From an uncultured Anaeroplasma sp. (GTDB lineage Bacteria > Bacillota_I > Bacilli_A > Acholeplasmatales > Anaeroplasmataceae): 64,000 bases of DNA. The DNA lies in NCBI GenBank assembly GCA_947592005.1, contig CANQDJ010000001.1:11035-75034 (forward strand), given 5' to 3'. The notes under the pieces are model-generated. The model was not told the DNA's origin and ran no database searches. It saw nothing but the letters and a program-made list of their open reading frames with translations. Positions within the stretch are counted from its first letter, which is position 1. Each line of letters begins with the position of its first letter. The position numbers and the translations under genes were made by a program. Of the stretch, positions 18,577 through 19,847 are shown one piece after another.

Positions 18577-18876
18577 ATGAATGATCCATTACTATTTATA
18601 GATTCGGTAAAAGATAAAAGCGAGGCAACTTCCAATCAAGAATATTATGATTCGAGAGTGAAGTCGAGAAAAAAAGTGGCGAAACATCGGTTGGAAGATA
18701 TCGAAGCGATGTTGTATTATCGAATTCATGTGCTTGCCGAAATTTATACGAAATCCGCTACATTTGAAGGAGTAGTAAAAGAAGTCAGTGAACAAGGACT
18801 GCGACTACAAATGGAAAATAAGGAAATTCTTATTCCTATTGTAGATATAGAAGATATCAATATTTTAAAACTTTAA
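18577..18876 (+). CDS. CotO-like spore coat morphogenetic protein (short form)
   Basis: N-terminal PLLFI motif and C-terminal Sm-like FEGVVKEVSEQGLRL...IPIVDIEDINIL, resembling CotO. Confidence 0.5.
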   Translation: MNDPLLFIDSVKDKSEATSNQEYYDSRVKSRKKVAKHRLEDIEAMLYYRIHVLAEIYTKSATFEGVVKEVSEQGLRLQMENKEILIPIVDIEDINILKL

Positions 18877-18881
18877 AGAAG

Positions 18882-18918
18882 AGGATTAAAATTCTTTTGG
18901 GATTTTAGTCCTTTTTTT
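18882..18918 (+). terminator. Intrinsic terminator
   Basis: AGGATTAAAATT/GATTTTAGTCCT stem followed by a T run. Confidence 0.7.
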
Positions 18919-18967
18919 CTTTTTATAATTAATCGAATGTCACTAAAATTATACGAAAAAATCAGTA

Positions 18968-18998
18968 TTGACAAAAATATGCGTGGGGGGGGTATAAT
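18968..18998 (+). promoter_or_regulatory. Sigma-A promoter with a G8 tract in a 19-nt spacer
   Basis: TTGACA 18968-18973, G8 18985-18992, TATAAT 18993-18998. Confidence 0.8.
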
Positions 18999-19033
18999 AT
19001 AGACATTAAGAAAGGGAGAAATAAGGTGAGTTT

Positions 19034-19585
19034 ATGAAAAAATTGTTTTTAGGAATATTTATTGTATTATTTTCCGTATTAATTTTGACGGGGTGTGATT
19101 TTGAATCGACTGCGACCACAAGTGCGGAAGAGGATAAAACTAGTTCAGATAAAGAAGATAGTGGAACTAGTTCAAATGTTAAAGAAATACCTAATTATAA
19201 AATAAATGATAATATCTATGTAACGAATAGTAGTGGCAAATATAGATTTAAGATTACAGGTGTAAAAGAAACCGAAGAAAGAAATCAATTTTCTGACACA
19301 CAAGCCAAAAAAGTTATTGTTATTTCTTATGAATACGAAAATCAAACTCTACAAAATAATTTATATATAAGCAGTATGGATTTTAAGGCATATGATAAAG
19401 ATGATTATATTTTGGAAACGTATGAAGTAATCAATTATAAGTATCCTAGTAGTGTATCAACCGGTCATAAGGAAACAGCCGAAATGGTATTTGCATTAAA
19501 CAATGATATTAATTATATTGAACTTGAATATTATGACAATTTTTTTAATTCTAAACCGGATTGTAAAATTATACTTGAATGGTAA
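19034..19585 (+). CDS. Lipoprotein with probable Ig-like (DUF4352-like) domain
   Basis: Signal peptide with lipobox LTGC, S/T/D/E-rich linker, beta-rich C-terminus. Confidence 0.75.
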   Translation: MKKLFLGIFIVLFSVLILTGCDFESTATTSAEEDKTSSDKEDSGTSSNVKEIPNYKINDNIYVTNSSGKYRFKITGVKETEERNQFSDTQAKKVIVISYEYENQTLQNNLYISSMDFKAYDKDDYILETYEVINYKYPSSVSTGHKETAEMVFALNNDINYIELEYYDNFFNSKPDCKIILEW

Positions 19586-19847
19586 AAATAGAATTGTTAT
19601 ATTGTTGTTTGACGATTAAAGACTTTAAATCACTTCAATAAAAAAGGAAAAGGACTGTGCGGATAGTCCTTTTTGAATTTTAAATATTAGTATAATATCA
19701 TATCAAATTGAAGTATTTTATTTATTTTTTAATAAAATGAATAGTTAAAGTGAAGGATTACTTTTTATTCTTTTTGAAGACGCATCAAAAGTTATTGATA
19801 TAGTGCTTGTAAAAATAATAATTTTGTGGTATATTTATATCGCACTT

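Follow-up and report, generated by a model that had tools for sequence, protein, structure and literature searches.

The window, that is the whole stretch of 64,000 nucleotides analysed here, corresponds to positions 11035-75034 of contig C1 in a genome of 1.49 Mb, 33% GC and 76 contigs (G000). It belongs to an uncultured Bacillota of small genome size that carries sporulation genes; the contigs related to it are from gut metagenome assemblies. Downstream of a cotO-like gene, the window contains a lipoprotein gene, preceded by a promoter with a run of eight G residues in its spacer. The features of the locus, along with the layout of the poly-G promoters found in the same genome, are reported in Table 1.

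Table 1. Features of the lipoprotein locus, in positions of the window, and layout of the three poly-G promoters of the genome
Feature	Position	Strand	Remarks
Terminator-like hairpin with T-run	18876-18918	+	3' of the cotO-like gene (18577-18876)
A-rich stretch gaaaaaatcagta	18955-18967	+	immediately 5' of the -35 box; 5' edge of the promoter cassette of about 45 nt
-35 box TTGACA	18968-18973	+	perfect consensus
Spacer of 19 nt, aaaatatgcgt+GGGGGGGG	18974-18992	+	aaaatatgcgt, then G8
T splitting the G tract	18984	+	unbroken G10 or G12 in alleles of other strains
Poly-G tract, G8	18985-18992	+	abuts the -10 box; predicted slippage site
-10 box TATAAT	18993-18998	+	perfect consensus, without TG extension
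Predicted 5' UTR	18999-19033	+	RBS AAGGTGA at 19023-19029; the transcription start is a prediction
Lipoprotein gene, 183 aa	19034-19585	+	ORF begins MKKLFLGIFIVLFSVLILTGC
Terminator-like hairpin AAAAGGACTGTGCGGATAGTCCTTTT	19648-19673	unassigned	T-runs flank both sides; end of the lipoprotein unit
C1 promoter (lipoprotein)			TTGACA-AAAATATGCGT-G8-TATAAT; spacer 19 nt
C64 promoter (LRR protein)			TTGACA-AAACTATAC-G9-TATAAT; spacer 18 nt
C52 promoter (polysaccharide operon)			TTGACA-AAAGTATGT-G8-TATAAT; spacer 17 nt

The arrangement reported in the preliminary description, with TTGACA and TATAAT separated by a 19-nt spacer that includes G8, was found to be exact when the letters were read again; 35 nt lie between TATAAT and the ATG of the lipoprotein gene (19034). 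The gene is predicted to be read from a promoter of the housekeeping-sigma (sigma-A/sigma-70) type. A search with the complete promoter pattern, allowing up to two mismatches, returned one match in the window and none in 100 dinucleotide-preserving shuffles; a general promoter scan missed it, because that scan was limited to spacers of 16-18 nt. Two different readings of the same region were discarded: a promoter of the MerR type, with its 19-bp spacer, is ruled out by a spacer devoid of a dyad operator, and the alternative boxes that would give a 17-nt spacer in the window allele, GACAAA and GGTATA, are poor matches. A terminator scan reported three sites, against 0.4 expected. The two hairpins of Table 1 bracket the lipoprotein gene, which therefore appears to form a monocistronic unit with its own predicted promoter; the upstream hairpin is predicted to insulate this unit from read-through.

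The encoded protein starts with a signal peptide, MKK-LFLGIFIVLFSVLI-LTGC (i.e. MKKLFLGIFIVLFSVLI-LTGC), ending in the lipobox L18-T19-G20-C21, where Cys21 is encoded at 19094-19096. The lipobox pattern [LVI][ASTVI][GAS]C is found where expected, at the end of an N-terminal signal peptide, and the 183-aa ORF is confirmed as the lipobox-bearing lipoprotein described earlier. In the aligned homologues G20 is nearly invariant, and the Cys that follows is kept in most. The signal peptide is followed by a linker rich in Ser, Thr, Asp and Glu, and then by a predicted beta-sandwich, possibly of DUF4352/DUF5067 type. The match of the window protein to PF11611 (DUF4352) scores 21 bits, under the cut-off of 25.9 bits; its homologues (44-67% identity, about 172 aa) carry both PF16729 (DUF5067) and PF11611. 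The AlphaFold model (pLDDT 81) features a beta-sandwich, preceded by a disordered linker. Its best fold matches are YjhA from B. subtilis (3cfu, E 3e-5) and MPT63 from M. tuberculosis (1lmi, TM 0.56/0.75), the latter a secreted antigen, while a sequence-profile search of the PDB with the lipoprotein returned no match.

Runs of eight or more G or C are rare in this genome, as the preliminary description had supposed for G8: five are found in the whole 1.49 Mb, the number expected under a Markov model of order 3 being about 2.2. Three of the five directly precede the TATAAT of a promoter with two perfect boxes, in the form TTGACA-N9-11-G8/9-TATAAT; the probability that three out of five runs would by chance abut the -10 box in any of the 43 perfect promoters of the genome is, as a rough estimate, 3e-14. 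The search for other TTGACA-(G)n-TATAAT promoters in the genome, proposed earlier, led therefore to two more, and both precede genes for surface structures. The C64 promoter is followed by the gene of a protein longer than 1400 aa, which has a membrane anchor at its N-terminus and contains leucine-rich repeats of the BspA type (LRR_5, E 1e-22). The C52 promoter precedes an operon of 8.7 kb, coding for two GT4 glycosyltransferases, a radical-SAM/SPASM protein, a multi-pass membrane protein, a TupA-like ATP-grasp enzyme, an aminotransferase and a flippase-like protein; from this gene content it is read as a surface-polysaccharide locus. The genes behind the three promoters are mutually unrelated.

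Similarities between the promoters extend beyond the boxes. C1 and C64 have in common upstream and 5' UTR motifs, namely CGAAAAAA-TCA..TATTGACAAAA, TATAATA..ATTAAGAAAG and GGTGAGTTTATGAA; the 5' UTR motif found no match among the JGI metagenome contigs scanned. The sequence CGAAAAAAATCAAATA, similar to the A-rich stretch of the lipoprotein promoter, is located upstream of the C64 promoter and of a paralogous promoter on C57, where the spacer contains just GGG. The C52 promoter (minus strand, 8793-8821 of L005; 972-1001 of L174) is separated from the first glycosyltransferase by a leader of about 270 nt, which contains a long hairpin, AAGGAATTG...CAATTCCTT, and this may be an attenuator. When C52 of the window's genome is compared with L174, the upstream DNA diverges beyond a point about 45 nt 5' of the -35 box.

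The two remaining long runs are located within reading frames. At C5:35563-35570 an in-frame G8 (coding for SGGGS) is contained in a lipoprotein of 983 aa with Flg_new (Listeria-Bacteroides) repeats, and is a candidate intragenic phase switch, which would currently be ON. At C2:39393-39401 a C9 on the + strand, corresponding to G9 on the gene strand, is found just after a start codon (ATGAATAAATCTT-G9-ATTACC): it shifts the ATG out of the frame of the ORF of 325 codons that follows, while G10 or G7 would join them, so that a translational phase switch, currently OFF, is a candidate reading here. A Pfam search of the C2 ORF returned no family match. Of the five long tracts, four or more are therefore found at genes for surface structures. 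Both mutS and mutL are intact in the genome, and a mutator background is thereby ruled out.

For the three promoters, the same loci were retrieved from other samples by exact-protein look-ups; with two glycosyltransferases of the C52 operon the exact look-ups returned no record, while the look-up with the aminotransferase succeeded. Three alleles of the lipoprotein promoter were obtained: GCG-T-G8 with a 19-nt spacer, in the window as well as in L152 and L154; an unbroken G10 (GC-G10), again with a 19-nt spacer, in L008 and L009; and G12 (GC-G12) with a 21-nt spacer in L010, which over 2.1 kb differs from the window by two substitutions in addition to the tract. A 19-nt spacer is found five times, one of 21 nt once, and one of 17 nt never. 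For the LRR promoter, G9 in the window's genome is replaced by G10 in L131, L172 and L173; for the polysaccharide promoter, G8 is replaced by G9 in L174, where the tract is the sole indel in 8810 nt aligned at 99.67% identity. Over the alleles of the three promoters, spacers range from 17 to 21 nt.

The strain comparison suggested in the preliminary description has thus a clear outcome: at all three promoters the tract differs in length between samples, with no other indel, or hardly any, in flanks 99.7-100% identical. In each of the three, the tract is thus the place where indels concentrate when near-identical strains are compared. In related species, where homologous lipoprotein genes lack a G tract, the corresponding upstream lengths are invariant, in 10 and 5 samples. 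The same description had named an invariant G8 across reads and strains, together with strong expression, as the finding that would speak against a switch. Lengths do vary across samples, uninterrupted alleles ranging from G9 to G12 (G10 and G12 at the lipoprotein promoter), while the interrupted G-T-G8 form of the window is identical in the three samples that carry it.

In L008, L009 and L148 the promoter is duplicated. The first copy is located 3' of the cotO-like gene, before three small genes missing from the window, and the second before the lipoprotein gene. The tract of the first copy is G9 in L008 and G10 in L009 and L148; between L008 and L009, which come from two samples, this G9/G10 change is the sole difference in 2356 nt. 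The homology of the two copies in L008 and L009 starts at GAAAAATCAGTA, and the repeat spans about 45 nt; in the same two contigs a near-copy of the hairpin that ends the lipoprotein unit is found upstream of the second promoter copy. The insert of 1.1 kb (330-1465 in L008 and L009; 1593-2700 in L148) codes for a soluble protein of 84 aa and for membrane proteins of 71 and 92 aa, none of which was matched in a Pfam search. The arrangement of the window's strain is the one expected after recombination between the two repeats of about 45 nt. Some Logan contigs (L010, L131, L150, L151) end at the tract. Their reading as signatures of mixed tract lengths was rejected, the promoter being duplicated there, and these ends were not counted as heterogeneity because the duplicated promoter repeat exceeds the k-mer size.

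Two further arrangements were observed. At 533-563 of L154 (covered 2.6x) the G-T-G8 promoter is followed by ATTAAGAAAGG and then by a different sequence, AAATAAAATATGTT: the junction reflects either the fusion of a third gene to the cassette or a chimeric assembly. At 1501-1531 of L001, from another genome of the genus (G033), the identical core TTGACAAAAATATGC-G10-TATAAT precedes an unrelated protein of 294 aa, cytoplasmic in appearance; a short ORF just 5' of the core resembles by eye the C-terminal end of a transposase, and is reported as a candidate. The promoter core may be portable between genes.

These data point, quite probably, to an expression switch driven by slippage in the spacer of the lipoprotein promoter. 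Slipped-strand mispairing at replication would add G residues to the tract, or remove them from it; each step of one G would move the -35 and -10 boxes relative to each other, in distance as well as in rotation, and would hence alter the rate of transcription. Expression would be best with a 17-nt spacer, weaker with 18, and little would be expected at 19 or more. Together with the two intragenic tracts, the three promoter tracts would make up a contingency set of five loci, four or more of which concern surface structures. Frequent, reversible length changes within one population and transcription that depends on tract length, two of the features that define the class of porA, tp0126 and vlp, are predicted here. 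Three others are found: a homopolymer between the -35 and -10 boxes, in a promoter predicted from sequence; a tract polymorphic between close strains, within conserved flanks; and a surface or exposed product, as indicated by the LTGC lipobox, the LRR_5/BspA protein and the glycosyltransferase operon.

Similar promoters were found in other genomes. Within the genus, a pattern of G8 followed by TAnnAT gave 17 matches in 12 of 40 genomes, mostly before proteins with a lipobox, while the reversed control pattern gave none. Among GTDB representatives the strict pattern was found at at least 120 loci; those listed belong to gut Clostridia, Bacilli, Christensenellaceae, Oscillospiraceae, Selenomonadales, Treponema, Saccharibacteria, Streptobacillus and others. 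Among the listed loci, a signal or membrane-anchor N-terminus is present in 63 out of 90 first downstream ORFs (70%), compared with 134 out of 699 control ORFs (19%) taken from the same loci, an enrichment (odds ratio 9.8, p 5e-22) to be read in the light of the signal-peptide test used, a crude home-made heuristic. A lipobox is found in 17 of these 90 ORFs and in 24 of the 699 controls (p 3e-7). Poly-G promoters of this design thus tend to precede genes for exported proteins in many gut lineages. The survey suggests that the design is widespread among gut Clostridia, Bacilli, Treponema and Saccharibacteria, where it would serve mostly such proteins.

A genome of the same class (G242) features seven near-identical poly-G promoters, of the forms TTGACAAAACAATTTC-G10 and TTGACAAAATCATTCT-G9, on contigs C10, C51, C59, C62, C64 and C66, several of them at contig ends; this suggests a multigene family switched via poly-G promoters. 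At four other loci (L096, L098, L125, L090) such promoters precede proteins with N-termini of the form ...ATFAYFT..., which we take to resemble signal peptides of the SipW-dependent TasA/camelysin type. If that identity is true, the expression of matrix-fibre-like proteins would be variable.

Which tract length corresponds to the ON state may be judged from spacer lengths. The ordinary perfect promoters of the window's genome have spacers of 16 nt (8 cases), 17 nt (19), 18 nt (8) and 19 nt (3): since they peak at 17 nt, the 19-nt spacer of the window is off the optimum. The canonical 17-nt optimum very probably holds in this organism, where 19 nt should be weak, and we infer a dim or OFF state for the window's allele. 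The preliminary description had calculated that G6 would give a 17-nt spacer in this allele, and the arithmetic (11 + 6 = 17) is right. The T at 18984 probably shortened the tract from G10 to G8, with a gain in stability; G-T-G8 may represent a dim variant that slips less readily.

The poly-G promoters themselves are distributed differently. Of 126 listed promoters built as TTGACA-N-G(8 or more)-TATAAT in species representatives, 15 have a spacer of 15 nt, 17 of 16 nt, 8 of 17 nt, 29 of 18 nt, 38 of 19 nt, 15 of 20 nt and 4 of 21 nt. The listed ones (loci L011-L130) accordingly peak at 18-19 nt and dip at 17, and G9 and G10 outnumber G8 among them. In a separate sample of 401 genomes, mostly from the window's class, spacers are chiefly of 19-20 nt, and the reversed control pattern is absent. 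The skew towards 18-19 nt fits a population that is mostly OFF; it also fits a different optimum, or the lack of a regulatory role.

A different optimum would mean that the tract is a dial rather than a switch, with a working state at 18-19 nt: the window allele would be ON, or moderately so, and slippage would fine-tune expression. The distribution of the listed promoters, with which the 401-genome sample agrees, speaks for this view, and in the window's species two of the three promoters are most often found with 19 nt. It is nonetheless unlikely. The sharp peak of the ordinary perfect promoters at 17 nt, in the very genome of the window, argues against it. A shift of the optimum through an A-form-like geometry of the G tract was considered, and is weak on helical repeats: the helical repeat of G.C tracts is too close to that of mixed-sequence DNA to move the optimum by 2 bp. 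Tested precedents, moreover, go in the opposite direction: in T. pallidum, transcription of tp0126 is optimal at 17 nt, and tprL is ON with G8 and at background with G10, the tracts that prevail in vivo being G9-G10 (PMC7864442).

Slippage between an OFF and an ON state remains the preferred reading for the window's promoter. A wider reading, in which all promoters with perfect boxes and a flush G tract are seen as a cross-phylum contingency system of gut commensals resting at 18-19 nt, is unlikely; such a system would be either mostly dim or OFF in natural populations, with rare 17-nt ON variants, or tuned to a non-canonical optimum, with 19 nt as the working state.

Alternatively, the tract might be mutable while its length has no selected regulatory effect, variation being a by-product of a G-rich spacer. 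Some observations go along with this: mutS and mutL are intact, the five long runs are only about twice the 2.2 of the Markov expectation, and a homopolymer other than G, the T-run of a terminator, also differs in length between samples (T7/T8). Yet three of the five runs occupy the identical position in perfect promoters, the reversed control pattern has no occurrence in either 40 or 401 genomes, and the association with exported proteins is strong; besides, G9-G10 outnumber G8 in such promoters, while run counts in the genome drop steeply with increasing length up to 7. A by-product of this kind is thus very unlikely. That the tract or its length differences are artefacts of sequencing or assembly is extremely unlikely, for although homopolymers are error-prone, L152, L154 and L132 are covered 2-3x and several contigs end at the tract, the latter is present in independent ENA and Logan assemblies at 29-36x (L008, L009, L148), identical lengths are found again in separate samples, the architecture is present at at least 120 loci from many projects, and the contig ends are explained by the 45-nt promoter repeat.

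The precedent invoked in the preliminary description, the switching of surface antigens by homopolymers in promoter spacers, is an established class, which comprises porA, tp0126/tpr and the poly-A tracts of vlp. In Mycoplasma hyorhinis, the variable lipoprotein genes vlp have a poly-A tract in the promoter spacer. The likeness includes the spacer homopolymer before a lipoprotein, a promoter/5' region common to several genes, and a small, low-GC genome from the same class-level lineage. The vlp genes, however, are paralogous, with repetitive coding regions, whereas here a poly-G cassette stands before unrelated genes, and no repetitive coding region is apparent when the lipoprotein sequence is read by eye. 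A vlp-type family of paralogous lipoproteins is ruled out: the gene is single-copy in the window's genome, and no homologue at E<=1e-5 was found in 39 other genomes of the genus.

In Campylobacter and Helicobacter, genera without mismatch repair, tracts are located mostly inside reading frames, where they act as translational switches. A small set of G8-G10 tracts concentrated in genes for surface structures is common to these genera and to the window's genome, where C2 and C5 are of the intragenic type; here, in contrast, promoter spacers contain three of the five tracts, and both mismatch-repair genes, mutS and mutL, are intact. In Neisseria mismatch repair is intact, as in the window's genome, and the meningococcal porA promoter is close in design, with a G homopolymer inside the promoter spacer of a surface-protein gene. 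Differences are also evident: porA belongs to a Gram-negative pathogen, where switching and its effect on expression have been demonstrated experimentally, while the present data are differences between strains of an uncultured gut Bacillota, and here both boxes are perfect consensus sequences, with the tract flush against the -10 box. In porA, slippage of the poly-G tract between the boxes alters the length of the spacer and, through it, how strongly the gene is transcribed (as summarised in PMC7864442).

Treponema pallidum offers a further parallel: poly-G tracts of 7-12 residues are found in or beside the promoters of tprE/G/J/L and tp0126, the last one, coding for an OmpW homologue, with its tract between the -35 and -10 boxes, and in tprL the G9 form predominates in vivo (PMC7864442). 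As in tprL, most alleles described here are longer than the presumed optimum. T. pallidum belongs to a different phylum and the products are outer-membrane proteins; variation within isolates was followed there by fragment analysis and its effect by GFP reporters, whereas the present comparison is one of sequences. Genomes of gut Treponema, on the other hand, are among the matches of the poly-G promoter survey.

To our knowledge, the switching of surface antigens by slippage has been worked out almost wholly in pathogens, such as Neisseria, Haemophilus, Campylobacter, Treponema pallidum and the mycoplasmas. In gut commensals the known mechanism of surface switching is mainly promoter inversion, and in the papers searched no description of such poly-G promoters was found for gut Bacillota. 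The class of mechanism, that of porA, TP0126 and vlp, is already known; what appears to be new is a candidate switch of the pathogen type in an uncultured, small-genome gut Bacillota. If confirmed, it would provide a simple sequence signature by which variable surface structures, likely targets of IgA and phages, may be recognised in metagenome-assembled genomes, and it would mean that consensus assemblies hide functionally different subpopulations.
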